A DNA stretch of 59,708 bases from a virus. Taxonomy: Duplodnaviria; Caudoviricetes. A program made the position numbers and the translations under genes. The stretch is taken from IMG/VR virus record IMGVR_UViG_3300017589_000117, positions 1-59,708 of that record, one strand, 5' to 3'. Below, in pieces: positions 1 to 21,043 of the stretch. Positions within the stretch are counted from its first letter, which is position 1. Every line of letters begins with the position of its first letter. Under the pieces are notes generated by a model, which saw only the letters and a program-made list of their open reading frames with translations, did not search any database and was not told where the DNA came from.

Positions 1-142
1 CCATCCTCACTTCATCACATTTTTTAAGTCTTTCTGAGATTAGTCTACTTATGAAGTCATCCTTGTTGACACTTGTGATCTCTGACTTTAGTTCATTAAG
101 TATGTCTAGGTCAAAAGAAAGATTATATTCTTTTAGAACCAT
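1..142 (-). CDS. hypothetical protein, truncated by window edge
   Basis: ATG at 142 overlapping the end of the 123..530 ORF; frame stays open to position 1 (MVLKEYNLSFDLDILNELK...). Confidence 0.4.
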   Translation of the reverse strand, partial: MVLKEYNLSFDLDILNELKSEITSVNKDDFISRLISERLKKCDEVRM

Positions 143-530
143 TTACTAGACCACCAAGTTTGTAGTTATTCTTATCTAATTGAGATAAGAACTTATTTAA
201 TTTTAGTCTTGCACCTGAACTCTCTGAAACAAGGAAACCAGATTTTTCAAGTGAGTCTCTCCAGTCAAGAGCTTCTACTTTGTAATATTGAAATAATGCT
301 AGAACTCTTAGTGACTCTTCAAGTTCATGCATATTTGGAACTGTTATTGTTTGTCCTTCATAGTACTTGATAAAATTTAAAAAGTTATCATGATCTAAAA
401 CATAACACAGTTCATTCAAAGTTGAATATCTTGGATTGTCGCTAGAAGCATAAAGCAACATTAATAGCATTGAGTACGTATCGTCTTTATTAATGTTTGA
501 TAATTTTCTGTTAAGATTGTCTATTCCCAT
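123..530 (-). CDS. hypothetical protein, possible Mor-like transcription factor
   Basis: FIKYYEGQTITVP resembles the Mor-family FGGxxIYIP motif; RBS AAAGG; function call weak. Confidence 0.4.
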   Translation of the reverse strand: MGIDNLNRKLSNINKDDTYSMLLMLLYASSDNPRYSTLNELCYVLDHDNFLNFIKYYEGQTITVPNMHELEESLRVLALFQYYKVEALDWRDSLEKSGFLVSESSGARLKLNKFLSQLDKNNYKLGGLVNGSKRI

Positions 531-545
531 TAGTACTTTACCTTT

Positions 546-1223
546 CTATTCTGACTCGTTCGTATTGTTACTCATTGTGTATAATTGTATTAAAGATAAG
601 CTGTTAGTAAAACTACTTACCTTTAATTCGTTTATGTGATTCTTTATAATGTCTTTACATAAAAGATATAACATCTTGGTATAAGCCACCTCACCTTCAG
701 GTAAATTATAATAGATAAAATGACCCTTAGAGAACGATAAGATTATTGACAATTTAGAATTAAGATAGACTTTAGAATTATCGCAGTATTTGGATTTTAC
801 TAACACTCTATCAACGACCTTCATTAAATTAAGTATATAATCTTTATCCTCAATACATGAGAAGTCATAATTACTATTATCATTTGAAGTTGACATACTA
901 ATTATTCCTTCTTTTAAATCATAATTACCTTCAACATCGATTATCTCTGACTTGTTAATACGGTTGTAATCTCTTATATATGAATGATAACATTTACTCA
1001 TATAACCAAGCCAGGAATGTATCTCTTTACCATTGTATATCTTCAAGTATAAATCTTGTGCCATTAAATGAGCGACCTGATCTGCAGCTTCTGTTGTTGA
1101 CATTAGATGTTTTCTTTTAATATATAGATAAGAGAGCTTGTAGATTGTTCTGTAAACTTCTGGGTCAGAAATATCTTGTTCTATTAGAACTTTTAGCTGT
1201 TTCTCTATATCTACTAATCTCAT
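546..1223 (-). CDS. putative sigma-factor-like protein (region 2-like)
   Basis: ADQVAHLMAQDLYLKIY...HSWLGYMSKCYHSYIRDYNR resembles sigma70/ECF region 2; coupled to the dUTPase gene by ATGA overlap. Confidence 0.4.
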   Translation of the reverse strand: MRLVDIEKQLKVLIEQDISDPEVYRTIYKLSYLYIKRKHLMSTTEAADQVAHLMAQDLYLKIYNGKEIHSWLGYMSKCYHSYIRDYNRINKSEIIDVEGNYDLKEGIISMSTSNDNSNYDFSCIEDKDYILNLMKVVDRVLVKSKYCDNSKVYLNSKLSIILSFSKGHFIYYNLPEGEVAYTKMLYLLCKDIIKNHINELKVSSFTNSLSLIQLYTMSNNTNESE

Positions 1224-1633
1224 GTCCCAGTACTTCCAACTCCATTGTCCGTTCTTAAATTGTCATAATGATCTACAAATTGAGCTTGTATAAATGGCAT
1301 TATAACAATTTGACAGATACGTGTTTTCTTCTCAACAAAGATATCTTCACCACTGTTAAAAGCAATAAGATGCCAACTTCCAGTGTATCCTGGATCTATT
1401 GGAGCAAGATTGAAAGAAACATTATTACCCATAACAGATGACCTTGGGAAGATATATCCAGCACATCCTTGTGGCAATTCAATACTGAAGCCTAATGTGA
1501 TAATATTCTTACCATATTTAATTATTATATCTTCTTGAGTAATTATGTCAGCACCAGCGTCAAAGTCGTGAGCATAGGATAAAAGATCAGAGCATCTTAA
1601 ATTAGGGTTATCAATGTTCACTTTCATTTTCAT
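1220..1633 (-). CDS. dut: trimeric dUTPase
   Basis: Motifs AGADI, PRSS, IDPGYTG, RICQ and RxxxGxGSTG all present. Confidence 0.95.
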   Translation of the reverse strand: MKMKVNIDNPNLRCSDLLSYAHDFDAGADIITQEDIIIKYGKNIITLGFSIELPQGCAGYIFPRSSVMGNNVSFNLAPIDPGYTGSWHLIAFNSGEDIFVEKKTRICQIVIMPFIQAQFVDHYDNLRTDNGVGSTGT

Positions 1634-1634
1634 T

Positions 1635-2819
1635 TTATTTACCTTCTTCTATAATTTCTTTTGACATTTCTAAAGCTTTTCTTACAATGACATCCATGTT
1701 GTAATACTTATAATCTCCAAGTCTTCCACCGAAAACAACTTGACCTCCATTAAAGGTTGCTTCCTCTCCTTTATATTTTAAGAAGAGTTCTTTATTTACT
1801 TTATCAGAGATTGGATAGTAAGCATTCCCAATATCTTTTAAATTATCTGAGGAGCTTTCCAAGGTTAGAACAGTAGTTCCATTGTTTACTGGGTTCTTCT
1901 TGAAATACTTATGCTCAATTGATCTTGTAATTGAGATATTACTAGATGTATAATTCATGACTGCTGTACCTTGATAGCTGTTGTAATCCATCTCTTGAGT
2001 GTTAAAGTTTAAACCTCTGAAATCCAAGACACCATGTTTGAACTTAAAGAACTCATCAATCCTGCCAGTATAGATTACTTTCTTTAATCCACCATCTCCT
2101 TTCATTGAACACTTATTATAATCAAGACCAAGATTTACTCTTATATTACCATGACATAAGATATTAGTAACAAGATCAGTATAACCATTTACAGGTATTC
2201 CTTGATACTCATCATCAAAATAATTGTTGTCATATGTAAATCTCACTGGTAATCTTGTTATAATTGAACCATCAAGCTCTGTACACTTTCTTCCCCACTG
2301 CTTCTCTGTATATCCTTTTATTAGCTTATTGTAGATAGTGGTTCCAACCAGTGAAATTGCCTTATTCTCCAAGTTATTAACAGAATGATCTATACTTGGA
2401 TCACCATTAAAGTCGTAAATCTCTTTTGAGATAATACTTTTAACTTTATCAGGATAAGGGGTATTAAATATTCTGCTGAAAGTGTTCATGTTAAAAGGTA
2501 AATTGTAGACCTCATAATTAAGACGTTGCTCATCTAAGAAAACAGCAATTGGACTATTAACATAGTTTTCAAATTCAGCGAACTTATTAAGGTAGTCCCA
2601 CTCTGTTTTACCAGAGTGGAATATGTGAGCACCAAACACATGAACATCGATGTCATTAACTTTTTCAGTATAAGCAGTCCCAGCAACATGAACTCGTCTA
2701 TCAATTACCAGACATCTTTTGCCACTCTCGGCAAGTTCTCTTGCAACAATTGCTCCATAGAGACCTGCACCAACAATTAGATAATCGTACCCATTAACTT
2801 CGTAATTTCCAAAGTCCAT
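1635..2819 (-). CDS. glf: UDP-galactopyranose mutase
   Basis: FAD-binding IVGAGLYG, GAHIFH, GYTEKQWG, RLPVRFTYDNNYF, YQGIP, TRSIEHKYF, GRLGDYKYYNMD. Confidence 0.95.
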   Translation of the reverse strand: MDFGNYEVNGYDYLIVGAGLYGAIVARELAESGKRCLVIDRRVHVAGTAYTEKVNDIDVHVFGAHIFHSGKTEWDYLNKFAEFENYVNSPIAVFLDEQRLNYEVYNLPFNMNTFSRIFNTPYPDKVKSIISKEIYDFNGDPSIDHSVNNLENKAISLVGTTIYNKLIKGYTEKQWGRKCTELDGSIITRLPVRFTYDNNYFDDEYQGIPVNGYTDLVTNILCHGNIRVNLGLDYNKCSMKGDGGLKKVIYTGRIDEFFKFKHGVLDFRGLNFNTQEMDYNSYQGTAVMNYTSSNISITRSIEHKYFKKNPVNNGTTVLTLESSSDNLKDIGNAYYPISDKVNKELFLKYKGEEATFNGGQVVFGGRLGDYKYYNMDVIVRKALEMSKEIIEEGK

Positions 2820-4270
2820 TAGACTTCCACATGAGTATAACTATTATTTCTTGCTTGATCTAATAATTTACCATCTTCCCAAATATTGAACTCGTATTGA
2901 TCTACAGATCTATATCCATTTTCTTTTTGCATTCTTCTTACTGCCTTCCATGTGATACAGCATTGTGGTAAATTTCTCTTCTCTCTGAAACTTAGCCATG
3001 GCTTTTCTCCATGTATCTCTTTCAACTTTTCTTGATGGGATCTAAATCTGTCCTGGATCTGTTCAAAGGGTTGTCCAGGTGCTCCCATTGCATCGCAACC
3101 ATATACAAGCCAAGAGAAAGTACAGACGTTAAATCCTCTATCAAGTACTCTGACAGTCATGTCAATATCATCTAGACCACAATCTTTGTTGTCATTGTAG
3201 AATAAATTATTTTCACACATTCCAGTTATATTTAAACAGAAAACTTGAGTAAGAGAACCACGACTTAGAGAATAAGATTTAACAGATTCACAGTAACCAT
3301 CCTTCCAACAGAAAGCAATTGGCATTCCACCAGAGATCATAACATTATCAGAAGCAACCGCTCTTTCCATTGCAATTTGCCACATTGCTAGAACCTTAGC
3401 AACAGGCTTGCCTTTCATTGGAGTTACATACTGAGACTTTGGATATCCGTCTGCTTTCATTCCTTCATGAGTATAAGTTAAATTGTTAACATCATCATCC
3501 ATTTGGAAAGCTAAAGGATAACCTTGTTTATATAACCACCGTTGAGACATTCTTCTTACAGCTCCAGCATTGCTTATTAACTCATCTGGGAAATCATGTA
3601 TTGTAACATACTTGTACTTCTGAGTTGCTTCAACATATTCTGCTTTCTGGCTTTCTCTTACAAAGACAATTACTGGCCAGTTTAATTCTTCATCCATCTC
3701 ATAGAATTTTAATCTCTCAAGAACTGGAAGTTCTGGACGGTTGTATCCTGGAATTGTTAGAGGAATCTTTCTATCTTTAACAATGTCATAAGCTTCTTCA
3801 AATAATTGATCAGACCACCACGTATCTTTACCAACAAGACCAACAATATGAGTGAAGTTAACATCGCTGCTTGCGAATATTTCTTCAACTCTCTTACTGA
3901 ATAAACCTCCATAGTATACAACTTTTTTGAATCCTTTTTCTACTATGTAGTTGGCGTCTTTTTCATTAAGAAACTCTAGTATGTAAAGAGTGTCAGTTTT
4001 TCTGTCGAACTTATTTCTGACTCTTGTGTTAGCTTCAGTCTTCTCAATTAGCTCTCTTAAGACATACTGAACACTATTAATATTACAGTTACTGCTTGGG
4101 CAGGTCTCATTAATTAACTTACAATTTACTTCATAGTCACAACCACAATGTAACATGGTATTGCCAGATTCAGACTTTAGCATTATGCTGTTAAAGTCAT
4201 TTAGACAGGTTGTTCTTAATCTAGCATACTCATATAATTCATTATAGATACTTACATGCACTTCGTTCAT
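2819..4270 (-). CDS. TET/JBP-associated-type (TAGT, GT-A fold) glycosyltransferase with N-terminal degenerate dCMP-deaminase-like domain
   Basis: IPGYNRP, VFVRESQ, GAVRR, FQMDDD (DxD) and DDIDMTVRVL motifs; N-terminal ~145 aa aligns by eye to ORF 5445..6029 (..GFKKVVYYG vs ..GFKHVVYGG). Confidence 0.7.
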   Translation of the reverse strand: MNEVHVSIYNELYEYARLRTTCLNDFNSIMLKSESGNTMLHCGCDYEVNCKLINETCPSSNCNINSVQYVLRELIEKTEANTRVRNKFDRKTDTLYILEFLNEKDANYIVEKGFKKVVYYGGLFSKRVEEIFASSDVNFTHIVGLVGKDTWWSDQLFEEAYDIVKDRKIPLTIPGYNRPELPVLERLKFYEMDEELNWPVIVFVRESQKAEYVEATQKYKYVTIHDFPDELISNAGAVRRMSQRWLYKQGYPLAFQMDDDVNNLTYTHEGMKADGYPKSQYVTPMKGKPVAKVLAMWQIAMERAVASDNVMISGGMPIAFCWKDGYCESVKSYSLSRGSLTQVFCLNITGMCENNLFYNDNKDCGLDDIDMTVRVLDRGFNVCTFSWLVYGCDAMGAPGQPFEQIQDRFRSHQEKLKEIHGEKPWLSFREKRNLPQCCITWKAVRRMQKENGYRSVDQYEFNIWEDGKLLDQARNNSYTHVEV

Positions 4271-4296
4271 TACAATTACACCTATTCTTTCTTTTA

Positions 4297-5379
4297 TTAT
4301 GTTGTTACTAATTGTTCAATCGTTGAAATGAAAGATAAATACTTGCCATTGATGTTCTTATCGACAAGATCATAAAATTTTGAAACTCTTGCCAGATAAT
4401 CTTGATCTGACATATTGCTAAGAATGTTTGGAAGTTTATCAAGATCGTCTTTATCCAGTACAATAGCAGACTTACCCTCTAGTAACCAGCTTGGCACAGA
4501 TTGTGAGCACAATACTGGAAGACATCCTGAGTTAAGTGCTTCTATTGTTACAAGTTCAAGTCTTCCTCTCATCTTTCTGTTCTTTGACTCTCTTTTTACG
4601 TAAACAAAGTCATAATGGAACATATGAGGTTTTAATAATGCTTCTAAATCTTCTGGCATGAATGGCTTTAAATCTGTCCAGAACTCCACATTAGTTGTAA
4701 GAACTTCTTTGAAATAAAAATAAGTCTTTCTATCCCCAGCAATAAAAGTTTCAATACCTGTACAGTGTAGGTCTTTTGAAATCTGAGCCAGTTCAAGAAC
4801 TCTCTTTCTATTAACCCATCTTGAGGTGCTTATAATACTTCTGTTGGTTGAATGTAGCTTTTCTTCAGCAAGATCTAAGATCTCTTCTTTACTCTTAATT
4901 AGACTGATGTAATTGAACTCAAAGTATTGTCCATTTCTTGGTAAGAGATATTCAAAATCAAGATGCATATCTTCTGAGTTTAACATTAGCAGACAATAAT
5001 TATCATGTTTTGTGAACTCATCGAAGTGATTGTACAGTTGTCCATCACGCTCTTCATTTATAACAATTGAGAACGGTGTTTCAAGTTCATCAAAGATATA
5101 ATCGTAAACATTGTAATCAACCATATCCTTCTTCTTGAATAAGAATCCAGGTGTTGAGAATATCAAAAAATCATAATAATTTAAAAATTCTCCAACACTT
5201 GTTGTAGCATCAGGATATTTTATTCCATCCAAGTCATGTTTTGTTTTAGGTTTTGTTGATACAATATCAACATCAAATTTTGAATATGTGTTAAGTAGTT
5301 GAGACATGTATAATGGTGCTGTAATGATACCAGCCATGTTTCTCTTGTCTGTATTAAATGTCACTATTCCAATTTTCAT
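4297..5379 (-). CDS. GT-B fold glycosyltransferase (putative DNA glycosyltransferase)
   Basis: N-terminal MKIGIV Rossmann strand; SRWVNRKR; LELVTIEALNSGCLPV (GT4-like nucleotide-sugar binding motif). Confidence 0.75.
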   Translation of the reverse strand: MKIGIVTFNTDKRNMAGIITAPLYMSQLLNTYSKFDVDIVSTKPKTKHDLDGIKYPDATTSVGEFLNYYDFLIFSTPGFLFKKKDMVDYNVYDYIFDELETPFSIVINEERDGQLYNHFDEFTKHDNYCLLMLNSEDMHLDFEYLLPRNGQYFEFNYISLIKSKEEILDLAEEKLHSTNRSIISTSRWVNRKRVLELAQISKDLHCTGIETFIAGDRKTYFYFKEVLTTNVEFWTDLKPFMPEDLEALLKPHMFHYDFVYVKRESKNRKMRGRLELVTIEALNSGCLPVLCSQSVPSWLLEGKSAIVLDKDDLDKLPNILSNMSDQDYLARVSKFYDLVDKNINGKYLSFISTIEQLVTT

Positions 5380-5397
5380 CCATTACTCCTTTAAATT

Positions 5398-5424
5398 TAG
5401 AGACAACTTTTACAGCTGTCTCTA
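5398..5424 (-). other. intergenic hairpin (terminator or processing/stability element)
   Basis: TAGAGACAGCT/AGTTGTCTCTA stem on the minus strand; weak U tail. Confidence 0.4.
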
Positions 5425-5444
5425 TTTACTAGACTTATCTTTTA

Positions 5445-6029
5445 TTACTTGTGACTGCAGTTTGCATCTTCAATAATCAGGTTATGTTCTTCAGTGGTCA
5501 TTGTGTGCAGCTCATGATCAACTTCTGGATACCAGATGATGTCCATATTATTATCAGATATAACTTTTTTCACATCATCTGAGATTTCTTGTCTCCCACC
5601 GTACACAACATGTTTGAATCCTGCTTCTGCTAAATGAGTAATACAATCAATACATGGATATCTTGTAACATACATTATACCAATTGATGTATCAACAGGC
5701 TTTCCTTTATACGATGTATCTTTCAACATGTTCACCATCTTAACTTCACAGTGGACACTGGCACAGAATGGTCTTGTCTCTTCACAGCTCTCGTAGATAC
5801 CTGTTACTTCTTGTTTATGACACTTGCCATCTTTTACACAATTTATGTTTTGACCATGACCACCACCACTGTTGGATGTTAGATATCTGGTCTGATCTGG
5901 AAGTTCATACAAACCACCAACCTGAACTTTTCTGCAGATGCTAAATTTCTTACTGAAATTATATGCTTCTTCTAGACACTCTTTATTGTATATGTCGTTC
6001 AAACATTTTTCTAATGAACTGTTACTCAT
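5445..6029 (-). CDS. dCMP deaminase
   Basis: SICRKVQVG, HCE (HxE) and YPCIDC (PCxxC) zinc motifs. Confidence 0.9.
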   Translation of the reverse strand: MSNSSLEKCLNDIYNKECLEEAYNFSKKFSICRKVQVGGLYELPDQTRYLTSNSGGGHGQNINCVKDGKCHKQEVTGIYESCEETRPFCASVHCEVKMVNMLKDTSYKGKPVDTSIGIMYVTRYPCIDCITHLAEAGFKHVVYGGRQEISDDVKKVISDNNMDIIWYPEVDHELHTMTTEEHNLIIEDANCSHK

Positions 6030-6055
6030 ATTTATATTACCTCTTCCCTTTTAAG

Positions 6056-6907
6056 TTAGATTAAAGAATTTGTCAACAGTTTTAATGCAGGATCATTTAC
6101 TTTATCAAATTGCTTGTCAGCACAATATTGGATATCTGCAAGGAAGCTTTCAGACATTCTTTCTTTTGGGTCAATCTCGAATACATTTGGGTTTTCAAGA
6201 TAAGTACCTGAAGAATCTTTGAAATCTGGCTCATACAGGTGTAAACTACCAACCATATGTTTGTACCATCCAATTTCAACTCCAAGTGTTTTTGCCAGTT
6301 CTAACTGGAACATTGTGAAGTTAAACAGATCATAAACAAAGCCTTTCCAGATGTCATTACTTCTCATGTAAACAATCATGTTAAGTTTTCCATCTCTTAG
6401 GATGAACTGCAGCGAACTTGTACATGGAACATCTTTTGTACCTTTATTAGCATTGATTGGAATTTGGATAACTCCTTGACGAGTGTCAGGATCTCTTTTC
6501 ATATCTGCAACGAGCTTGTCCCATTCTCCATTAAAAAGATGATAGCCATAACCACTGTTAACAGTTCCATCTGGATTAGCAATATGATCCCAGAAGTTGC
6601 TGTAGACAGCGATGTCTTCTAGCTTATTGGAAGCACTCTTATACCACAGGTATTCTCCACATAAGTATCTTGCTGACATTTTTCGTATATCCGAATACAC
6701 GATGTTGTCTGCAGGATTTAAGATGGTAATTGCAGCACCAAGCACTTCTTTGACTTTCATTCCTCTTGGGGCAGACTCCTTACCATAAACGGACAACCCA
6801 GCGTAAATACCCTCAAATGCATCATTAACATTGTAGTATGTAGCAGTATCAAAGTTCTCTTTTGCACCTCTGTATAAATCACCGTAACTTCTTTCTACAC
6901 TTAACAT
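6056..6907 (-). CDS. thymidylate-synthase-family enzyme, dCMP hydroxymethylase-like
   Basis: Catalytic DVPC, RSNDIWKGFVYD (Asp at the position of E. coli TS Asn177 / T4 gp42 Asp179), GSLHLY. Confidence 0.85.
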   Translation of the reverse strand: MLSVERSYGDLYRGAKENFDTATYYNVNDAFEGIYAGLSVYGKESAPRGMKVKEVLGAAITILNPADNIVYSDIRKMSARYLCGEYLWYKSASNKLEDIAVYSNFWDHIANPDGTVNSGYGYHLFNGEWDKLVADMKRDPDTRQGVIQIPINANKGTKDVPCTSSLQFILRDGKLNMIVYMRSNDIWKGFVYDLFNFTMFQLELAKTLGVEIGWYKHMVGSLHLYEPDFKDSSGTYLENPNVFEIDPKERMSESFLADIQYCADKQFDKVNDPALKLLTNSLI

Positions 6908-6950
6908 TTTTCTCCTCCATATAATTTGAATTTTTGAACAATTTAATTAG

Positions 6951-7040
6951 CGAACCCAGTCGGATTTTTACCGACACCTGAAGCGTCATTTCGGATAATC
7001 CCTAATCGGCTTTCCATGCTACTGATTACATCATGGGTTC
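6951..7040 (-). ncRNA. tRNA-like element A with expanded anticodon arm
   Basis: Perfect 7-bp acceptor GAACCCA/TGGGTTC, D stem ATGT/GCAT, T stem GTCGG/CCGAC with loop TAAAAAT; ~24-nt anticodon loop; no encoded CCA. Confidence 0.6.
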
Positions 7041-7048
7041 ATGTTAAT

Positions 7049-7124
7049 TGGAGCAAGACAAAGGATTTGAACCTTCTGTCTCCAAGAAGTATACTTGGTG
7101 TTCTGACCATTGAACTATTCTTGC
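7049..7124 (-). tRNA. tRNA-like element B (76 nt, nominal anticodon TAC, non-canonical loop)
   Basis: Full cloverleaf: GCAAGA/TCTTGC, D arm GTTC-AATGGTCA-GAAC, CCAAG-TATACTT-CTTGG, GAAGG-TTCAAAT-CCTTT, encoded CCA; lacks U33 and purine 37. Confidence 0.75.
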
Positions 7125-7131
7125 TTAGACA

Positions 7132-7228
7132 ATCCCCCAGAGTATCCACAATATTTTAACTGGTAAAACTTGGACTGATCAATTTCCACTAATACCAATT
7201 TCAATCGTGACGTCCTTTACTGGGGGAT
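7132..7228 (-). ncRNA. structured RNA element C (non-tRNA)
   Basis: 9-bp closing stem ATCCCCCAG/CTGGGGGAT and internal GGAC/GTCC; lies inside the RNA array. Confidence 0.45.
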
Positions 7229-7233
7229 CTCTT

Positions 7234-7304
7234 CGGGGTTTGTGGGAATCGAACCCACGCTATCTCCACTATCGCAGACAGTTCTACCATTAAACTAGCA
7301 TCCC
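7234..7304 (-). tRNA. pseudo-tRNA element D
   Basis: Canonical D arm TAGTTTAATGGTAGAAC and T arm GTGGG-TTCGATT-CCCAC; mismatched acceptor stem; ~10-nt anticodon loop. Confidence 0.65.
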
Positions 7305-7309
7305 ATAAG

Positions 7310-7379
7310 AGATGGGGAAGGATTTTCACCTACAACTCCCTCTTGCACATTAGAGAGGTTTTAATTAAACTACCCATCA
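7310..7379 (-). tRNA. pseudo-tRNA element E
   Basis: GATGGG/CCCATC acceptor, short D arm GTTT-AATTA-AAAC, TCTCT/AGAGG stem with 8-nt loop AATGTGCA, T arm with TGAAAAT loop. Confidence 0.6.
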
Positions 7380-7390
7380 AAATTTAAATA

Positions 7391-7495
7391 AATATCCTTC
7401 TAACAGCAGTTCGTTATGCTACCATATAATTTTATGGGAACCAGGATTCCAACATTGCATAAATCTGGTATATCCTGATTCGTTAGAAGGGTATT
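7391..7495 (-). ncRNA. four-way-junction structured RNA element F
   Basis: P1 CCTTCTAAC/GTTAGAAGG, P2 GAATCAGGAT/ATCCTGGTTC, P3 CCATA/TATGG and P4 AGCA/TGCT abut with almost no linker. Confidence 0.55.
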
Positions 7496-7504
7496 TTAAT
7501 ATGT

Positions 7505-7530
7505 AAGGTTTTAAAGTCTTTTCCTTGACT
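7505..7530 (-). ncRNA. compact H-type pseudoknot candidate
   Basis: AGTC-AAGG-AAAA-GACT-TTAAAA-CCTT: S1 AGTC/GACT, S2 AAGG/CCTT, A-rich loop 3. Confidence 0.4.
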
Positions 7531-7542
7531 AACTTAAATTAT

Positions 7543-7616
7543 TGGGACAGGGGTCAGGGATTTGAACCCCAATACCACCACGAGAGGAGGTGTTTTGCAT
7601 TAAACTAACCCACTGT
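7543..7616 (-). tRNA. pseudo-tRNA element G with encoded CCA
   Basis: Extended acceptor ACAG(T)GGGT/ACCCCTGT, D arm GTTT-AATGCA-AAAC, 6-nt anticodon loop TCTCGT, T loop TTCAAAT, 3' CCA. Confidence 0.65.
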
Positions 7617-7620
7617 ATAC

Positions 7621-7754
7621 TGGGCAAAGAGTAGGGACTTGAACCCCAATACTATCAGCTATAAACCCACCTCTAATTATCTAGTCTTAGAGATTTCAGC
7701 GTAATAGACCTATCCCACCATTACCTCGTCAAATAATGATTTGAATCTCTTGCC
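7621..7754 (-). ncRNA. 134-nt tRNA-like RNA H (acceptor + T arm + large insert)
   Basis: GGCAAGAG/CTCTTTGCC stem ending CCCA, T arm TGGGG-TTCAAGT-CCCTA, hairpin TCAAAT/ATTTGA, long interrupted stem in place of the anticodon arm. Confidence 0.6.
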
Positions 7755-7769
7755 ATATTATTTTTCTGA

Positions 7770-7808
7770 CTTACACAATTAACAACGTTTAAACTAAATG
7801 AAAACATC
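7770..7808 (-). promoter_or_regulatory. phage promoter motif (drives RNA array and modification genes)
   Basis: GATGTTT-N14-CGTTGTTAATTGTGTAAG. Confidence 0.8.
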
Positions 7809-8588
7809 AAGATATTTCTTATATTCCTCATTATTTATTTCTCTGAATATGCAGTTTTCATTATTTAAAGATAATTCAGGATAAATTTTTGAGATCTTAT
7901 GATTAGTATTAATATTATCTACCAGTGATCTTGTCTGGCGAAGACTAAGAGTATAACCAAGTTCCACTAAAGCATTAAATAATCCTTTTATTGACACTGC
8001 TAGTATGCTGTTATTTATTACAAATTTCTTTGATCTAGTCATAATTGCTTCTTCGGTACTGAATGATAATATTCCTCCATGATTCTTCTTATTTGATGCT
8101 AATTGTCTATCTCTAGATTCTTTAGTGTGAACTGCCAGAATTCCACCATTATTTCTTCTATTCGTTTCTAATGACTTCTTTATAGACTCTTTAGTATGCA
8201 TTGCTAAAACTCCACCGTGATTATTCCTATTATTTTCGTACATTTCTTTAGTATGTAAATGTTTTGCACTCCTCTCTCCTCTGATCATATTATACATCAT
8301 ATGTCCATTTGACTCATCCCAGAACTTCTTGATATAGTAATCTTCTCTATCTCTAAGTTCTCTGACTGTAAATTCTTTGTCATCCATAAATTCCAAGGTT
8401 GAGAGTATGAAATCATCTTCTCCATATTTTCTGATATCTTGATATAGTGCTGCATCATTACCTTCTTTAGAACATCTTAGATGATTAAATCCATTGTAAG
8501 GACTATTCCATCTGTATTCTTTATCGATTTTAGTGCTTCCAATATAGATCTTCTTAGTAGTTTTGCACAGTATTTTATAAATTTCCAT
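7794..8588 (-). mobile_element. free-standing GIY-YIG homing endonuclease (Seg-like)
   Basis: MEIYKI...KIYIGST...R motif, repeated HTKES/GGIL units; ATG 8588 after RBS; paralogue at 49222. Confidence 0.85.
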
Positions 8589-8610
8589 ATAAAACTGTCC
8601 TTTCAAATTA

Positions 8611-8645
8611 TATGACTTGTATAAGTTTTAATTATACAAGTCATA
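8611..8645. other. perfect 14-bp inverted repeat upstream of the endonuclease
   Basis: TATGACTTGTATAA-gttttaa-TTATACAAGTCATA. Confidence 0.7.
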
Positions 8646-8652
8646 ACATAAA

Positions 8653-9492
8653 TTATAGTATAAAAGTTTCATTTAAGGCTTTGTCATCTAAATAGACACT
8701 TGCAAATACTTTTCTTGGACCACCTTCTAGGTTATTCTTGATTTCATCAATATTTTCATTGACTGCATCAAAATATAAACCATGATCAGCACAGAAATTA
8801 CAAGCATCTATTAGAGCGTCATCTGTTCTACATGTCCACAGGATTAATTTAGCTCCTTCAGCTTTTTCAATCTTAAGTCTTGCCATTAAACCTAAGTTTG
8901 GCTTAGCATGTTGAATATGTGGGAAACAATCTGTTGCCAGACATCCATCAAAATCGACTGCCAGAATTCTTGGGAGATCTTTAAAACTAAAGTTCCTTGC
9001 AATATGGTTTATATCAAGTTCTTTTGCAAGATCATACTCATTATTATGATACTTAACATTTGGAACTGAAACCGTATCGAAGATGAATCTAAATTTAAGG
9101 TCAAGCTCTTTCAAGTATTCTAATGTGTAATAGCTATCATCGCTATCCTTCTTACAGTTAACAAGACATTTCTTAAGATCAGAATAAACATAGATAAGAT
9201 CTGCACCAATATCTTTTATTAGGAAATCAAGATCTATTAAAGAACTTAGATCTAACCATCCTTTCGACTTTCTTTCAGAAGCAGTCTGATAAACAAACTG
9301 CCCATACATGAATCGGTCAAAAATTAGATTTTCTTCACTCAGTAATAAGTCTTTAAAATATTTGTAAGTATTGTCAGTATGTCTACTGCAATGAACCAAT
9401 CTAAAATCTGGGTTATCTTTCAGAATCTTTTCAGCTAATGTAGATTTTCCAGCACCATCAACGCCTTCTAGTATAATCTTTTTGCCTATCAT
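8653..9492 (-). CDS. dNMP/thymidylate kinase fused to HAD-family phosphatase domain
   Basis: P-loop EGVDGAGKST and DR motif; C-terminal AVDFDG, LWTCR and YLDDK HAD motifs. Confidence 0.85.
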   Translation of the reverse strand: MIGKKIILEGVDGAGKSTLAEKILKDNPDFRLVHCSRHTDNTYKYFKDLLLSEENLIFDRFMYGQFVYQTASERKSKGWLDLSSLIDLDFLIKDIGADLIYVYSDLKKCLVNCKKDSDDSYYTLEYLKELDLKFRFIFDTVSVPNVKYHNNEYDLAKELDINHIARNFSFKDLPRILAVDFDGCLATDCFPHIQHAKPNLGLMARLKIEKAEGAKLILWTCRTDDALIDACNFCADHGLYFDAVNENIDEIKNNLEGGPRKVFASVYLDDKALNETFIL

Positions 9493-9503
9493 TTAAGTAT
9501 CTC

Positions 9504-10547
9504 CTACAGGTCGATTTTCTTAATGTATGATAATCTTTGAAGAATTACATCTTCTCCGTTAACATTTATAACAGTGTTTTCAATGAACTTATTCTTACTT
9601 CTTGGTAATGGTTGTTTTTCTGACCATTCATAAGAACCTTTTTTATTTGACATCTCAATTGCCATGATAATAGATCTTGAGAGGAATCGAATACTTTTAA
9701 GTCTCTTGTTCAGCTCATCTCTGTAAGTTATGGCTGAGTCAATAGTTGGATACATATCTTTTAAAGCTTCAATACTGATTTCTATAACCTTATTGTCAAC
9801 CAAACGATAAACAATACAGCCAACTTCGAAACTTTCTAAGCTGTTTGCATGTATCCTAACACCTTTATCAGTTCTTTTCTCATTGTAAATATCTGGGATT
9901 CTGTCATTAACAGTTGGAACCATCCCTTGATCTTTATATTCTTTGATAATCTTTTTAAGAGCTGAGACACTTTCCATTAAGTACTCTTCTTCTACTAAGT
10001 TCTTGTAAAGACCAATCTTAATTGGTTGTGCCCAGTTTAATGAGATTACAGGAATTCCAGAGAAGTCAATCTTATATAAGAAGTCTTCGCTAAACATGTG
10101 ATTTTCTGGAACTATTACACCATTATAGTATAAGAGCTTTGCAGCCTTAAGATCATCAAAGGATTCTTGATTTAATTTAGCAACTACATATTCCATTGCC
10201 AGCTCTCCATCACGAATTACAGTATATTGTCGGAACACTTTCTTATGAACCAGAGAAACTGTTTCATCATAGTCTGATTGAACTTCTACAACGATATCAA
10301 CAAGACCAACTAGAGAGAAATTAAATCTTTCTTGATTAGAAGAAATGCTTAATACTCTTACTGGCATTCCAGATTCTTTTGGGAACATGTGAATTAAAGG
10401 ATCTTTTGAATAACTTTTTGATCCATACTTGTAATGATCAGGAATATAAATTACTGTATCACCACTTTCGATAAGTGTTCTAAGGATATTCAATACATTT
10501 AAATTTGGACCTTCTGGTTTTAATCCTGTTCCAATAAACTTTTTCAT
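9504..10547 (-). CDS. hypothetical protein
   Basis: 347-aa ORF with RBS, first gene after a promoter motif. Confidence 0.7.
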   Translation of the reverse strand: MKKFIGTGLKPEGPNLNVLNILRTLIESGDTVIYIPDHYKYGSKSYSKDPLIHMFPKESGMPVRVLSISSNQERFNFSLVGLVDIVVEVQSDYDETVSLVHKKVFRQYTVIRDGELAMEYVVAKLNQESFDDLKAAKLLYYNGVIVPENHMFSEDFLYKIDFSGIPVISLNWAQPIKIGLYKNLVEEEYLMESVSALKKIIKEYKDQGMVPTVNDRIPDIYNEKRTDKGVRIHANSLESFEVGCIVYRLVDNKVIEISIEALKDMYPTIDSAITYRDELNKRLKSIRFLSRSIIMAIEMSNKKGSYEWSEKQPLPRSKNKFIENTVINVNGEDVILQRLSYIKKIDL

Positions 10548-10580
10548 AATAACTTCCTTCTTTCTTTTAAGTATTTTCTA

Positions 10581-10619
10581 CTTACATAACTAACAACGTC
10601 ATGGTTAAACAAAAACATC
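10581..10619 (-). promoter_or_regulatory. phage promoter motif
   Basis: GATGTTT-N14-CGTTGTTAGTTATGTAAG followed by hairpin TAAGTA/TACTTA. Confidence 0.8.
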
Positions 10620-10626
10620 AATTAAT

Positions 10627-11175
10627 TTATAAATAATTAACTCTATTTTCGCTGTCAGTCCGAAAGAGTTCTGGATGTAATTGAGCATAGTCTGAAATAC
10701 AGATGGCATCTGCTATGTCATCACTCTGCTTCATTCTTCCTGGATTCCTTTTTATAGGGTTTGGAACATCTAAATTTGGGTTATACTTATTTACTGCATA
10801 TAGAATTGACTCCTTCTTATCTGTAGTAACACCACCAAGAATTTCAGCTTTCCATGATCTAACATCAACTTCAGCAATATTTGCTAAATCAGAGAAGTTT
10901 GTTATTATTGCACATTGTACTTTACATAAGGATGTTATATTTGCAAGTGGAGACACAAATCTACCACGATATAACTTAATCCGTTCAAATAAAATTGAGT
11001 CTACATTATGTAGACTCAATAATCTTGAAATTTCAATTACTAACTTATCTCGATGCTTTAATGGTGGTTCATCATCGTTATATGGAATGAAAGAAGATTC
11101 TAACAGAATATCTTTTTCAGTTACTGCAAATCCATTCATTGTCTTGCCACCAATGTCTATTCCCAATGTTATCAT
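10627..11175 (-). CDS. RuvC-like Holliday junction resolvase
   Basis: LGIDIG, acidic FE, WK and DDIADAICI motifs. Confidence 0.85.
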   Translation of the reverse strand: MITLGIDIGGKTMNGFAVTEKDILLESSFIPYNDDEPPLKHRDKLVIEISRLLSLHNVDSILFERIKLYRGRFVSPLANITSLCKVQCAIITNFSDLANIAEVDVRSWKAEILGGVTTDKKESILYAVNKYNPNLDVPNPIKRNPGRMKQSDDIADAICISDYAQLHPELFRTDSENRVNYL

Positions 11176-12068
11176 TATTCACCAATCTCTATGTGAACAG
11201 TGTTAAACATATCTACAATATTGCCCATGAGATTGTATCTCATCTCTGAGGTTGAATTCTTTGCAAACTCTTCATTAACTAAGTCAACGTACATTGTATA
11301 TTGACCATCATCTCCCATGTAAAAAGTTTCCCAGTCTGCAGCAGTCAATAGATCCTTAACTCTTAGCTGTTTTAATGCAAGATTATCGAAGCTAACAATT
11401 TTAAATCCTTTTATAATATTTACCAAAGAGTTGTTGAGAATAATTATCCCATCCCTTATATCTTGGTTCATATAATCAGCACCTCTGCCAAATTGTTTGT
11501 ATCCAAGAATTAATATCTTTAGACCATTGTTACTGTATTTCATGATCTCCTCAACAGGAGTGTATCCAGCAATAACATGGAGAACTACATCTGGTAATAA
11601 TTTAACTCTGTCTAAGAACTCTTGATCAAAAGTACTGACCGAGATTCCAAGACCTCTTATCAGTTTCTGATCAATTAATAACTTTGTAAATCCTTCATTC
11701 TCCATAAAGGTTTCCTGTTTTATTGTTATGTTTGACAGTACACCTTTAGTTTTCATCATATATAGAAAGTTAAGAAGTCCAGGATGTGTATATGGATCTC
11801 CACCACCGATAGCGAGTTCAGTGTATGGGGTTAATGAATCAATGAAACGTACATTAGATAGATTACCATGTTGACCGTCTAAACCAGACTCTTCATGGCA
11901 CATTGGACAGTTAAACTTACAGTAATTTGTAATTTTTAAGTCAATAGACTCTGGAAATTCTGGTCTAAAGTTGTCTAAGTCATTCTCTCTAATTTTAGTT
12001 CCATCTTCATAAATCTTTACATTGTAGTTCCCATTAGTATAAGAACCAATTAGTGCTGAATTATACAT
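11175..12068 (-). CDS. radical SAM protein
   Basis: CKFNCPMC (CxxxCxxC) and GGGDP. Confidence 0.9.
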   Translation of the reverse strand: MYNSALIGSYTNGNYNVKIYEDGTKIRENDLDNFRPEFPESIDLKITNYCKFNCPMCHEESGLDGQHGNLSNVRFIDSLTPYTELAIGGGDPYTHPGLLNFLYMMKTKGVLSNITIKQETFMENEGFTKLLIDQKLIRGLGISVSTFDQEFLDRVKLLPDVVLHVIAGYTPVEEIMKYSNNGLKILILGYKQFGRGADYMNQDIRDGIIILNNSLVNIIKGFKIVSFDNLALKQLRVKDLLTAADWETFYMGDDGQYTMYVDLVNEEFAKNSTSEMRYNLMGNIVDMFNTVHIEIGE

Positions 12069-12091
12069 TGTATTATGTCTCCTTCTAAATT

Positions 12092-12649
12092 TTAGTGATT
12101 GTCATTATCAATAATCATTTCAATTCCACTGTTGAACAAGAATTCTTCAACAGTAACACCTTCAGAGTCAAGAAAGTTTTTTAGAGTTCCTGGATTGCTT
12201 TGATGATCGATGTATCCAGTATCGCTATTAATGTAGTATGTCTCATCATCTCTGAACTGTCCGATTTTAAAGAGCTCTTTATCTACCTTCACTCCACGAC
12301 AGTACTTCTTGAATACTGAGTTTAACAATTTAAAACCTTCTGTATTTTTATATAGCTTTAATACAGATTCTTTATCGTCAGTTGATGAGATTTCTGCTGA
12401 GTTAAAGTCTATCTCTCCGAGAATAATGGTTGCGAGATAACTTAACTTGCTAGATGGATCTGACAGAACATCCCATCCCCATCCGAATTCCCCAAATTCA
12501 AGCATGACCTTATTTTTACCTGTCTTTGCCATGTGGTCGACTCTTTTGATATAATCATCTTCAGTCAATTCAATTCTGTCTTTGCTGATGGTCACACTGT
12601 GTGAACTACTTGAATTAGTTTCAAAAACACCTCTTCTAATTTGTTTCAT
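12092..12649 (-). CDS. phage protein with N-terminal FETNSSSSHS motif
   Basis: MKQIRRGVFETNSSSSHS, GEFGWG, KLSYL and GYIDHQS motifs; immediately upstream of the radical SAM gene. Confidence 0.7.
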   Translation of the reverse strand: MKQIRRGVFETNSSSSHSVTISKDRIELTEDDYIKRVDHMAKTGKNKVMLEFGEFGWGWDVLSDPSSKLSYLATIILGEIDFNSAEISSTDDKESVLKLYKNTEGFKLLNSVFKKYCRGVKVDKELFKIGQFRDDETYYINSDTGYIDHQSNPGTLKNFLDSEGVTVEEFLFNSGIEMIIDNDNH

Positions 12650-13076
12650 TTTCTCTTTCCTCCTTAATAAATTTAGCTGTTGAATATATCACATTGTTAA
12701 CGATTAAATTAATATGAGTTTCATCTTCAATATCAATAAAATCGTCCATCATATGATTACATGAAAAAGACTTTTGATTTTTAAGTATCATTCTGAAAAC
12801 AAAAGTCGATCTAGGGAACCTTTGGTCACTAACGTAACTCTCTGAGTATAGCAGTAGACTCTCTTTCTTACTGGCTTTATGTCCGATTATTACACAGATA
12901 CTCGGATAGTTGCTATTCTTATTTGAGATATTGATAAATAAATTATCAACACACTCACAATAGTTATTATTTACACAGCGAGAGATGCATTCATTAACTC
13001 TGTCCGAGATAACTTCTGCCAAAATATTAAAATCAGATTCTTCTGGCTCACGTCTACTAAGAATTTCGTTAAGCAT
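12636..13076 (-). CDS. hypothetical protein
   Basis: ORF track; start moved to the ATG after GGAGG. Confidence 0.55.
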   Translation of the reverse strand: MLNEILSRREPEESDFNILAEVISDRVNECISRCVNNNYCECVDNLFINISNKNSNYPSICVIIGHKASKKESLLLYSESYVSDQRFPRSTFVFRMILKNQKSFSCNHMMDDFIDIEDETHINLIVNNVIYSTAKFIKEERENETN

Positions 13077-13299
13077 CCATTGCCTCCATCTCTTTTTCAA
13101 GTGGATATAAAAACATTCTTCCTGGCTCTTTCTTCATGTCATTCCATTCTTCCTGAGAATATTGGAATGCCCATTTATTACCATAGGTCTCTATCATTTT
13201 CTGTCTTGCTGACCAGTAATCACCGAAGATTGGTTGACAGTATCCTTCATGTTTTTGACCACTTCCAAATGTAAAATAATATTTTTCTGTTTCTTCCAT
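13069..13299 (-). CDS. hypothetical phage protein (YYFTFG...WAFQY)
   Basis: ATG 13299 after GAGGGG; aromatic-rich small protein. Confidence 0.65.
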   Translation of the reverse strand: MEETEKYYFTFGSGQKHEGYCQPIFGDYWSARQKMIETYGNKWAFQYSQEEWNDMKKEPGRMFLYPLEKEMEAMDA

Positions 13300-13300
13300 T

Positions 13301-13558
13301 TTATAAACCCCTCTCTTCAAGTATAATCATCTGCAGATCAACCTTCTTATGCACTAACTCAGAAGCTTTTTCATTGATATGAAGATTAACATGATCTACA
13401 ATCAGTAATGATGCTTCGTTTGTTAAGCCACCAGTATCTAATTGCCATTGTATTGTTTTCATTAACTTATTGGCAATTGGCTCAATTTGCTTTACCTTTT
13501 TAATAGTGTCTAGCTCTTCCAGCAGGTTCTGTACTTCAATAACTGCATATGCCCTCAT
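13301..13558 (-). CDS. hypothetical protein
   Basis: RBS GAGGTG; first gene after a promoter motif. Confidence 0.65.
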   Translation of the reverse strand: MRAYAVIEVQNLLEELDTIKKVKQIEPIANKLMKTIQWQLDTGGLTNEASLLIVDHVNLHINEKASELVHKKVDLQMIILEERGL

Positions 13559-13594
13559 TTAAAACACCTCTTTTAATTATTTAAGGAATTTCAC

Positions 13595-13633
13595 CTTACA
13601 TAATTAACAACGTTAAGATTAGACAAAAACATC
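13595..13633 (-). promoter_or_regulatory. phage promoter motif
   Basis: GATGTTT-N14-CGTTGTTAATTATGTAAG plus TAAGG/CCTTA hairpin. Confidence 0.8.
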
Positions 13634-14623
13634 TTATTTACTGAAACTAATAGCATCATCAGAGTTAAACTTTCGTCTTGGACTACCCAGCTTTAAGATG
13701 CTCCACATATATTTAGAGAACTCACAGAAACAGTTCTCAAGACTCATTACATTGAAACTTCTATTATGTTCTTCGAGATTATCAAGAAGTACATTTGATG
13801 AGTAATCTTTATTGACTAGTCTCATTACTTCTTCAAAATTATCTCTTAGCCAGAATAATATCTCTTCATCTGTTAATCCGTCTTTGTCTAGGAATAAGTG
13901 GTCCATTCCTCTTGAACATCCAGGTCCAGAAAGAACATACTCATTTTCACTTATTGGGAATTCTTTGATATATGTTAGATCAACAAAAATTTGATAAGAC
14001 AAGAATTTTCCAACTCCATGAAGCTCTTGAATTATATTACAAGCTTCTTCTGCATTCTCTGGATTCATTAATCTGCTGAACTTGTCTTCTTTTCTTAGAT
14101 CAATAATGTACATTGCAGCAAGATACTTATTTGGTTCATCAGGATATAATTTTTTCTTCATCGCATTCTTTAGTCCAAGAGTTCTGAATGCTCTTGTGTA
14201 AAAGTCTCTACCTGGATTTGGATCATTGTCAATAGCTTTCTTAATTACATCCATGTCCCATGTAAAGTCTTTACCAAGACCAATACATTCAGAAGTGTCA
14301 ATCCTGTTATACATCCTAAAAATCATTGTCTGATAGATTTTATCAAGATATGAGATATCAGGACTGTTCGTAATATTGTCAAGAAGCCATTTTGTAACTC
14401 TGTCATGTTCTCTTCTTATGTTTGTGAATTTATACTTTAATAAAAACTCATTTTCAGTCCATGGTGCAGGCAACCCTTTTTCTCTCTGCTTGTAGATCTT
14501 ATATCTTTCTGTAACATAGTCATAATAATGTTTTAAGACATCAACACTAATAACTGGAGAAGAGTTTTTTATACTCTCCTCTGAACAACCTAAATATGGT
14601 ATATCGTTTATTTTATTTTCCAT
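13634..14623 (-). CDS. aGPT-Pplase1-like (alpha-glutamyl/putrescinyl-thymine pyrophosphorylase clade 1, HhH fold) DNA base-modification protein
   Basis: ERYKIY...PWT...YKFTNIRREHDR, HhH-like GVGKFLSYQIFVDL, GPGCSRG, ENCFCEFSKY. Confidence 0.8.
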   Translation of the reverse strand: MENKINDIPYLGCSEESIKNSSPVISVDVLKHYYDYVTERYKIYKQREKGLPAPWTENEFLLKYKFTNIRREHDRVTKWLLDNITNSPDISYLDKIYQTMIFRMYNRIDTSECIGLGKDFTWDMDVIKKAIDNDPNPGRDFYTRAFRTLGLKNAMKKKLYPDEPNKYLAAMYIIDLRKEDKFSRLMNPENAEEACNIIQELHGVGKFLSYQIFVDLTYIKEFPISENEYVLSGPGCSRGMDHLFLDKDGLTDEEILFWLRDNFEEVMRLVNKDYSSNVLLDNLEEHNRSFNVMSLENCFCEFSKYMWSILKLGSPRRKFNSDDAISFSK

Positions 14624-16509: not shown

Positions 16510-16525
16510 CTTAGTTTCTCCTTTC

Positions 16526-16660
16526 TTACTTATGAAATTTCTTTGGTCGGGCTTTGCCTTTTTTCTTACTTCTTACCCATGGATCAGCTGAAGCTTCCCA
16601 AAAGGTGTTATCGTTTTTCTTATAAACTCTTGTCTCTTTGTCCCATCTAAAATCATTCAT
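16526..16660 (-). CDS. small basic hypothetical protein (44 aa)
   Basis: Not in ORF track; RBS AAGGAG, MNDFRWDKETRVYKK...KKFHK; first gene after a promoter. Confidence 0.55.
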   Translation of the reverse strand: MNDFRWDKETRVYKKNDNTFWEASADPWVRSKKKGKARPKKFHK

Positions 16661-16690
16661 ATCTTTTCTCCTTCTTTAAGAGCTTTTACC

Positions 16691-16729
16691 CTTACACACT
16701 TAACAACGCTGTTATTACTTAAAAACATC
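16691..16729 (-). promoter_or_regulatory. phage promoter motif
   Basis: GATGTTT-N14-CGTTGTTAAGTGTGTAAG; upstream element lies in the last codons of sbcC. Confidence 0.8.
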
Positions 16730-21004: not shown

Positions 21005-21043
21005 CCAATACAAGTAACAACGTCTGTAAATATCTAAAACATC
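21005..21043 (-). promoter_or_regulatory. phage promoter motif
   Basis: GATGTTT-N14-CGTTGTTACTTGTATT. Confidence 0.7.

Follow-up and report, generated by a model that had tools for sequence, protein, structure and literature searches.

In recent work, the tRNA genes of phages have come to be seen as tools of counter-defence. In phage T4, the homing endonuclease gene segB lies within a cluster of transfer RNA (tRNA) genes, and the site recognised by SegB includes a conserved motif of the tRNA T arm; close relatives of T4 are described that carry neither segB nor some of the tRNA genes (PMC2330249). SegB homologues are reported to be statistically enriched near tRNAs and to be able to drive segmental amplification of tRNA genes that counters a tRNA-cleaving defence, tRNA genes adjoining segB are reported to act as anti-defence loci (PMC13096335), and evasion of anticodon nucleases has been proposed for phage tRNAs whose loops are altered (PMC10264068). 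Here we describe a locus in a 59.7-kb IMG/VR virus record (IMGVR_UViG_3300017589_000117; 59,708 nt, with an estimated completeness of 37%, the whole of which is referred to below as the window), where an odd tRNA, five defective tRNA-like units and two further folded RNAs form an array packed between a GIY-YIG homing endonuclease gene and a thymidylate-synthase-like (TS-like) gene. All elements of the array lie on the minus strand, running from 7754 to 6950. The locus is real and unusual; selection for tRNA shape is not demonstrated by the evidence. Probably it represents a cluster of tRNA genes that is decaying and being reshuffled, and the reading that we prefer, with a probability of roughly one half, is that the island consists of endonuclease-linked, tRNA-derived small-RNA genes in turnover.

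The T4 region that comprises segB, the tRNA genes and "RNA species I and II" resembles this locus in several respects. In both, co-oriented tRNA genes are packed together with genes for small RNAs that are not tRNAs, a free-standing GIY-YIG homing endonuclease gene stands beside the tRNA cluster, and the island is present or absent among relatives. Unlike the T4 region, only one of the six tRNA-shaped units here is complete, the island is embedded in the leader of a DNA-hypermodification operon, the window endonuclease has no detectable similarity to SegB, and the locus is known from sequence alone. The parallel is one of functional analogy, not of family membership. Seen in this way, the locus fits the known type of phage island in which tRNAs and stable RNAs are linked to a homing endonuclease, with a modest chance that decoys are hidden among its units.

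Composition of the array

The array occupies a minus-strand tract of 886 nt (6908-7793) that holds no open reading frame (ORF) of 50 amino acids or more. Hidden small genes were considered as an explanation of the tract and set aside, the frames that overlap it being of 20-47 amino acids only. In the direction of the minus strand, the tract and its flanks are laid out as follows.

7794-8606, minus: free-standing GIY-YIG homing endonuclease gene (Pfam GIY-YIG, 5.8e-6; PHROG homing endonuclease, 1.4e-18)
7770-7789, minus: 20-nt promoter (or regulator) motif, putative, 15 nt upstream of unit 1 and heading the array
7621-7754, minus: unit 1, a 134-nt tRNA-derived RNA; ARAGORN -ps80 match at 7621-7720
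7543-7616, minus: unit 2, a borderline tRNA, nominally Glu-CUC; Rfam 23.8 bits, ARAGORN at -ps80 only
near 7505-7530, minus: candidate mini-pseudoknot of two 4-bp stems, too small for a test
7397-7490, minus: unit 3, a non-tRNA four-way junction with a closing stem of at least 9 bp; no Rfam match
7309-7379, minus: unit 4, tRNA-derived; ARAGORN -ps80 and -mt only
7233-7305, minus: unit 5, tRNA-derived; ARAGORN -ps80, its T arm scoring 17.4 bits locally against the transfer-messenger RNA (tmRNA) model
7134-7226, minus: unit 6, a non-tRNA rod-like hairpin RNA closed by 8 bp
7049-7124, minus: unit 7, a structurally complete tRNA, nominally Val-UAC; ARAGORN default and Rfam 48.1 bits
6950-7040, minus: unit 8, tRNA-derived; ARAGORN -ps80, the centroid fold keeping acceptor, D and T arms
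6056-6907, minus: TS-like gene, first of the downstream operon, probably a dUMP hydroxymethylase (Pfam and PHROG matches)

With default settings, ARAGORN calls a single gene in the entire window, tRNA-Val(UAC) at 7049-7124, and no tmRNA; the Rfam tRNA model (RF00005) scores the same unit well above its gathering score of 29 bits. Searched permissively with Rfam, 6700-8000 yields in addition a sub-threshold tRNA match at 7548-7614 (23.8 bits, E 0.032) and two local matches to the tmRNA model that cover T arms only. The gathering score is reached by one of the six tRNA-shaped units, and four of them have no tRNA-model match at E <= 10. When run at 80% thresholds (-ps80), ARAGORN returns six same-strand tRNA-like units in 6950-7720, together with one antisense overlap, against a chance expectation of 0.21 same-strand matches (maximum 2; 300 dinucleotide shuffles of the tract); the rest of the window, ~59 kb on both strands, gives 16 matches at the same thresholds. 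GGTTCRANTCC, a T-loop motif, is present at four places in the window, all of them in the tract and on the minus strand (0.09 expected). Four of the six units carry it, and just two of these four additionally have GG in the D loop.

A preliminary description of this DNA, made by a model from the letters alone, had announced six tRNA-shaped elements, and the enrichment at relaxed thresholds bears this out. The check that it proposed, with ARAGORN and Rfam, gave a mixed outcome, supporting one tRNA at 48.1 bits and leaving unit 2 below threshold and four units to relaxed ARAGORN only.

Unit 7 is the sole complete tRNA, and its loop is abnormal. The acceptor stem pairs at 6 of 7 positions, the D stem at 4 of 4 (with GG in the loop) and the anticodon stem at 5 of 5; the unit has a canonical T arm, U as the discriminator base and an encoded CCA. 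The anticodon loop reads UAUACUU, with abnormal bases at A33, U37 and U38, and all broken invariant positions of the unit fall in that loop. Among 70 distinct ARAGORN tRNAs from 221 other loci, which served as a baseline, position 33 is U in 68, C in 2 and A in none, position 37 is a purine in 69 and a pyrimidine in 1, and U38 is found in none. A33 and U37 could pair, which would close the loop to three bases. In being otherwise intact, with its deviations confined to the anticodon loop, unit 7 resembles the phage tRNAs proposed as nuclease evaders (PMC10264068); unlike it, the loops described there are decoding-competent, and A33/U37/U38 falls outside the 70 comparison tRNAs.

Unit 2 is borderline. 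It has one acceptor bulge or mismatch, a good D arm with a single G in the loop, a canonical T arm and a 3' CCA. Its anticodon arm is poor: the minimum free energy (MFE) cloverleaf has a 6-nt loop, and the alternative, a 7-nt CU-CUC-GU loop with U33 and G37, costs two stem mismatches. The other four tRNA-shaped units are unable to decode. Unit 1 is closed by an 8-bp helix with one bulge, lacks a D arm, contains a ~60-nt branched insert and retains a canonical T arm (loop UUCAAGU) and a 3' CCA; its fold has cloverleaf topology (z -1.55). Unit 4 combines an acceptor of 6/7 (U1.U72) and a D stem of 4/4, whose loop has no G, with a 6-bp anticodon stem, an 8-nt anticodon loop, a T stem containing U.U and the T loop UGAAAAU. 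Unit 5 has a perfect D arm (GG) and a perfect T arm joined to an acceptor of 4/7, which forms 4 bp in the MFE cloverleaf; the anticodon loop is of 8-10 nt. In unit 8 the acceptor (7/7), the D stem (4/4, without GG) and the T stem (5/5, loop UAAAAAU) surround ~40 nt of ill-defined anticodon/variable region. None of units 4, 5 and 8 ends in CCA. With A-rich T loops and no D-loop GG, units 4 and 8 have lost the usual elbow contacts. The tRNA-like units as a whole give fold z values from -1.3 to -1.8, as tRNAs ordinarily do.

Acceptor helices are imperfect in five of the six tRNA-shaped units, slightly so in two, the exception being 6950-7040. The lesions include bulges, an acceptor paired at 4/7 positions, absence of the D arm, loss of G18G19/U55C56 and loops of 6-10 nt, and because every unit is damaged differently, decay or recombination accounts for it better than one design. 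The preliminary description had taken the stems to be generally kept and the damage to be confined to the anticodon arms, and had reasoned that random decay would hit stems too. With five acceptors imperfect, two units without elbow bases and one without a D arm, the first of these statements is not upheld; the second was overstated, since acceptor, D and T-loop lesions are present, and the argument built on them fails because stems are hit. The T stems that are kept reflect in part an ascertainment effect, as such units are recognised by their T arms. On the anticodon loops the same description was largely right: a 7-nt loop with U33 and a purine at 37 is found cleanly in none of the six units, unit 7 having A33/U37, although unit 2 can be drawn with U33/G37 at the price of its two mismatches. 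Its observation that three units end in CCA after the closing helix is confirmed for 7621-7754, 7543-7616 and 7049-7124.

It could be argued that unit 7 (Val), and perhaps unit 2 (Glu), are unusual working tRNAs that decode with nuclease-resistant loops, and that the units whose loops have 8 nt serve to read four-base codons or to promote frameshifting. Unit 7 passes both detectors with its CCA encoded, unit 2 can be drawn with a 7-nt U33/G37 loop, and ARAGORN reads a four-base "anticodon" in unit 5. Decoding, however, normally needs the U-turn at U33 and a stacking purine at 37, and A33 together with a pyrimidine at 37 abolishes both in unit 7, whose discriminator is moreover U and not the A that is usual in bacterial tRNA-Val. 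The units with loops of 8-10 nt, for their part, also have broken acceptor stems or lost elbows. We judge working tRNAs of this kind to be highly improbable.

The two other closed-stem RNAs of the preliminary description, units 3 and 6, hold up well. Folded as 7395-7492, unit 3 has an MFE of -34.2 kcal/mol (z -5.77), and folded as 7133-7227, unit 6 has an MFE of -31.8 kcal/mol (z -3.38); none of 200 shuffles was equally stable in either case, and a separate fold run gave z of -6.3 and -4.1, respectively. Both are candidate new phage small RNAs, whether the island decays or functions. YrlA Y RNA with Ro/Rsr, tmRNA and GOLLD/ROOL are likewise structured RNAs, in part phage-encoded, that contain tRNA-like modules or adjoin tRNAs; unlike these, the array has no Rfam match to any such family at E <= 10 in 6700-8000, and a Pfam scan of window ORFs revealed no Ro/TROVE protein.

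Two groups of candidate identities were rejected. For tmRNA, Y RNA, GOLLD/ROOL and ribozymes, there was no Rfam match at E <= 10 in 6700-8000. A group I intron with a GIY-YIG ORF, of the T4 td type, gave no intron-model match at E <= 10, and the TS-like ORF is whole and has its own ribosome-binding site (RBS).

Paralogy among the units and possible mimicry

Several units are related to one another in segments. Units 1 and 2 are identical at 19 of 20 bases across the variable/T-arm segment, and their acceptor 3' strands differ at ~4 of 12 positions. Over their unusual T arms, units 4 and 8 share 15 of 18 bases, with a U.U mismatch in one copy at one site. The D-arm segment of unit 2 is similar to that of unit 4, and the D-arm segment of unit 5 to that of unit 7; over its 3' half, unit 5 strongly resembles one canonical tRNA-His, from an unrelated jumbo phage, with acceptor strands that do not match. 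This mosaic paralogy indicates duplication and recombination between tRNA units, beyond decay by point mutation. In a blastn search of units 5 and 7 against phage records only weak or chance matches were found. A first set of five Bacillota genomes yielded nothing useful. Among 401 Bacillota genomes there was no similar tRNA beyond 78-80% identity over 55 nt to unit 5 (three genomes) and a single 26-nt match (96%) at ~7375-7400 in a fourth of these genomes.

Under the turnover reading, the units would have been duplicated, recombined into mosaics and partly decayed, with residual tRNA function left in at most one or two of them. Linkage to the homing endonuclease may partly explain the persistence of the island.

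The main rival view of the same units is that they are selected tRNA mimics, in which non-decoding copies keep an acceptor/T-arm surface and act as decoys or sponges for tRNA-targeting defences. Anticodon nucleases, CCA-end modifying toxins and variable-loop nucleases would be the targets, and the island would be an accessory anti-defence cassette beside the homing endonuclease. Such a role would suit the island's lineage-specific, cassette-like character (see below) and its position behind a strong repeated promoter motif, as well as the stability and tight packing of the units. It would also suit unit 7, whose abnormal bases (A33, U37 and U38) are all in the loop and include a possible A33-U37 pair, units 1 and 2, whose T arms agree at 19 of 20 bases while the acceptor 3' strands diverge (~4/12), and units 4 and 8, between which there is one compensatory pair. 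That pair is a weak hint of constraint on a stem. The units nevertheless have no common design and are broken heterogeneously, acceptor stems included, and two of them have lost elbow contact bases that a shape mimic ought to keep. Precedent can be read both ways: altered-loop phage tRNAs have been proposed as anticodon-nuclease evaders (PMC10264068) and segB-adjacent tRNA genes act as anti-defence loci (PMC13096335), but the published anti-defence cases use functional tRNAs, and a literature search, with supplementary files outside it, found no class of phage tRNA decoys with destroyed anticodon arms. We consider selected mimicry an unlikely account of the array; co-option of some one non-decoding unit for tRNA mimicry is somewhat less unlikely, and we entertain it tentatively.

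Two extensions of this idea may be mentioned. In the first, the island is a mobile anti-defence cassette, a homing endonuclease carrying deliberately non-decoding tRNA mimics, in which a complete tRNA closed by A33-U37, together with acceptor/T-arm remnants, would soak up or mislead immune nucleases or CCA-end toxins; we regard this as quite unlikely. In the second and bolder one, non-decoding units that can be aminoacylated may feed amino acids to thymidine hypermodification, a suggestion drawn solely from adjacency.

Relatives and lineage specificity of the island

Two IMG/VR phages, G001 (locus L085) and G002 (locus L086), share a syntenic operon with the window, in the order TS-like gene, deaminase, glycosyltransferase and UDP-galactopyranose mutase (GLF), to which L086 adds a dUTPase and one further gene. 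The operon proteins of the window are mostly 37-51% identical to those of L085 and L086, with 32% for the product of the further gene in L086. These relatives are distant, with identities of 44-51% for the TS-like protein and, for PolA, ~29-33% in G001 and 41-46% in G002. In L085 and L086 the TS-like gene follows 54 or 49 nt after a protein gene, in L085 a homologue of the window gene at 8653-9492, and the gap holds a promoter-like motif. This site upstream of the TS-like gene has no endonuclease gene and no tRNA-like unit, even at relaxed ARAGORN thresholds. Since both are missing there, the endonuclease gene and the array (~1.75 kb, 6908-8652) can be regarded as lineage-specific, and since the operons of L085 and L086 exist without the array, the operon does not need it. 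The refuting condition named in the preliminary description, canonical tRNAs at this place in relatives, is neither borne out nor contradicted by L085 and L086, whose sites hold no tRNA.

Clusters that mix intact and irregular tRNA units are found in other phages, and the term "pseudo-tRNA" is present in many phage genome papers. The distant relative G009 (PolA 38% identical; complete at 128 kb) has ten canonical tRNAs clustered elsewhere in its genome, and the same cluster contains a 144-nt tRNA-like unit (L225, 5555-5698; Rfam tRNA 36.6 bits) with normal acceptor, D and T arms, in which a ~75-nt insert replaces the anticodon arm. The G009 cluster thus combines canonical and insert-bearing units, so mixed clusters occur in this clade. 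In the arrays of the large phages G004 and G005, sub-threshold tRNA matches of 21-29 bits are found among 22-52 tRNAs. As in these clusters, degenerate units stand here among tRNA genes; unlike them, where canonical tRNAs are the large majority (10 of 11 in G009), the present locus has the ratio inverted. A mixed tRNA cluster is normal, and one that is almost wholly non-canonical is not.

A further IMG/VR record, G010 (L226-L231; 75 kb, completeness 62%), carries the promoter 20-mer in four copies along with other intergenic motifs, and may be the remainder of the same or of a sister phage genome. It contains no tRNA at E <= 1 and has no other DNA similarity to positions 1-20000 of the window. 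If it is the rest of this genome, the array would be the phage's sole tRNA-related locus.

Wider searches were made for the array itself. Against 50,697 phage records, blastn and megablast gave no match, and single-protein scans of IMG/VR with the TS-like protein and HMUDK led to no relative of the array; a GLF scan of IMG/VR yielded generic homologues only, at up to 49% identity. A TS-like profile search recovered 80 IMG/VR loci, and ARAGORN, run on 60 of them (L085-L144), detected tRNAs in two, in both cases downstream and unrelated to the array. A scan of genome contigs gave 41 distant loci, and the PolA profile just two kin records in IMG/VR. Pattern scans returned no match for the anticodon arm of unit 7, two chance matches for a pair of T loops, both within canonical tRNA clusters, and none in metagenomes for three T loops. 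Three metagenome contigs carrying the promoter 20-mer were judged to be chance finds, having a GC content of 43-47% and no proteins in common with the window. Closer homologues of the TS-like protein and PolA (60-62% identity) are encoded in Logan/ENA assemblies only, the nearest sets being the TS-like proteins P0002-P0009 at 49-60% and the PolA proteins P0122-P0128 at 50-62%.

Probable expression of the array, and its gene neighbourhood

The GIY-YIG ORF stops 40 nt before unit 1, and the 20-nt motif lies in between, so that the endonuclease gene is upstream of the motif and the array fills the space between the motif and the first operon gene. The motif occurs 13 times in the window at up to three mismatches (0.01 expected), in all cases on the coding strand and before genes, and looks like a phage-specific promoter. 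Its other copies are at the following positions.

10581, 13595, 16691, 27032, 31827, 37775, 42051 and 45366, minus: further copies of the 20-nt motif
46342, 50734, 54057 and 58282, plus: further copies of the 20-nt motif

A conserved GATGTTT box stands ~11 nt upstream of the motif, and TTAAAT is often found ~12-15 nt downstream. The orientation of the motif switches near 46 kb, the place at which the GC skew also flips.

Because an RBS begins ~9-10 nt past the motif in two of the transcription units that it heads, transcripts would be expected to start at or just after the 3' end of the motif, in which case unit 1 would carry a short 5' leader. No minus-strand terminator was found in the tract, the sole call being a T arm misread as a terminator, and beyond the tract the motif does not recur before the downstream operon ends; most likely, therefore, the operon transcript includes the array as its 5' portion. 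To this extent the preliminary description was correct, both in its picture of units packed head to tail behind a phage promoter, the units being co-oriented 15 nt downstream of the motif, and in its placing of the array in the leader of the modification operon, with neither terminator nor motif before the TS-like gene. Host RNase P would then cut the transcript at the 5' ends of the units and RNase Z or exonucleases at their 3' ends, yielding up to eight small RNAs and freeing the operon mRNA.

This arrangement might also suggest that the tract is a cis-acting leader of the hypermodification operon, which would provide 5' trimming sites, a stability element or a regulatory structure. Its position fits: upstream of it is the promoter motif, downstream the RBS of the first operon gene, and no terminator or second motif intervenes. 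Yet the same operon stands behind a similar motif in L085 and L086, where the leader measures ~50 nt, and six consecutive processing sites without a cistron between them would have no obvious use. Cutting would, moreover, give a 5'-monophosphate mRNA, which is usually less stable. A cis-acting role is in our view very unlikely.

A number of findings sit uneasily with turnover as the explanation, and several would suit a maintained function better than junk. The tract is the longest non-coding stretch, the next ORF-free gap being of 255 nt, in a window that is 92.7% covered by ORFs, and its units are tightly packed, each with its own closing helix. The elements have a GC content of 41-50%, compared with 29-36% in the nine next-largest ORF-free gaps, and in an unselected scan of 14,904 96-nt windows on both strands, windows of the tract rank 7th (unit 6), 9th and 12th (unit 3) for stability. 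The lesions of unit 7 are restricted to loop positions 33, 37 and 38, and the T arms of units 4 and 8, a non-canonical arm common to both, differ by one compensatory pair, A-U to C-G at 51:63. The link to SegB-type endonucleases is also wanting in homology: a tblastn search with the window GIY-YIG protein against the 50,697 phage records (E <= 1e-3) matched 21 records, led by Bacillus phage SP-15 with 27.7% identity, and no T4-type phage. No array-bearing relative was found in the scans of phage records, IMG/VR and metagenomes, and transcription and RNase P/Z processing are deduced from the arrangement of the locus.

If the island is decaying, it gives a clear view of the gain, reshuffling and loss of tRNA clusters linked to an endonuclease, and an example of an insertion tolerated inside the leader of an essential DNA-modification operon. 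At the same time, a packed, promoter-driven, endonuclease-linked cluster whose units can almost all no longer decode would be a natural place in which to seek RNA decoys of tRNA-targeting immunity.

The neighbouring genes, assigned from Pfam and PHROG matches, make up a module for thymidine hypermodification and nucleotide metabolism. The 5' side of the array is occupied by genes for a 5-hmdU DNA kinase, a radical-SAM protein and a kinase/SIS fusion; on the 3' side, the TS-like gene is accompanied by a dCMP-deaminase-like gene, a TAGT-like (TET-associated-type) glycosyltransferase, GLF and a dUTPase. This minus-strand gene set (123-6907 and 8653-14623) suggests, as far as gene content can, a glycosylated, hypermodified thymidine. 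The presence of UDP-galactopyranose mutase in it hints at galactofuranose as the sugar. No tRNA repair or CCA-adding genes were found among the window ORFs in the Pfam and PHROG scans. The nearest cultured phages are distant, PolA being ~31% identical to that of Bacillus phages HSE3 and SP-15 and Listeria phage LIS04.

Further observations concern other parts of the window. A second free-standing GIY-YIG homing endonuclease gene is located at 49222-49896 on the plus strand, in the early or accessory region. The DNA polymerase of family A (21043-24519, minus) has a uracil-DNA-glycosylase-superfamily domain fused at its N terminus, a fusion kept in ~40 metagenomic homologues, and PolA homologues of relatives include inteins or split genes. 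The large subunit of topoisomerase II (GyrB-like; 42150-45104, minus) is also split by an intein (Pfam Intein_splicing, residues 432-791). Beside the topoisomerase gene, in the gap that separates it from the next, the minus-strand segment 42053-42172 folds at -34.6 kcal/mol with a GC content of 27% (rank 2 of the 14,904 windows); it overlaps the motif copy at 42051-42070 and is probably a terminator or a long hairpin.

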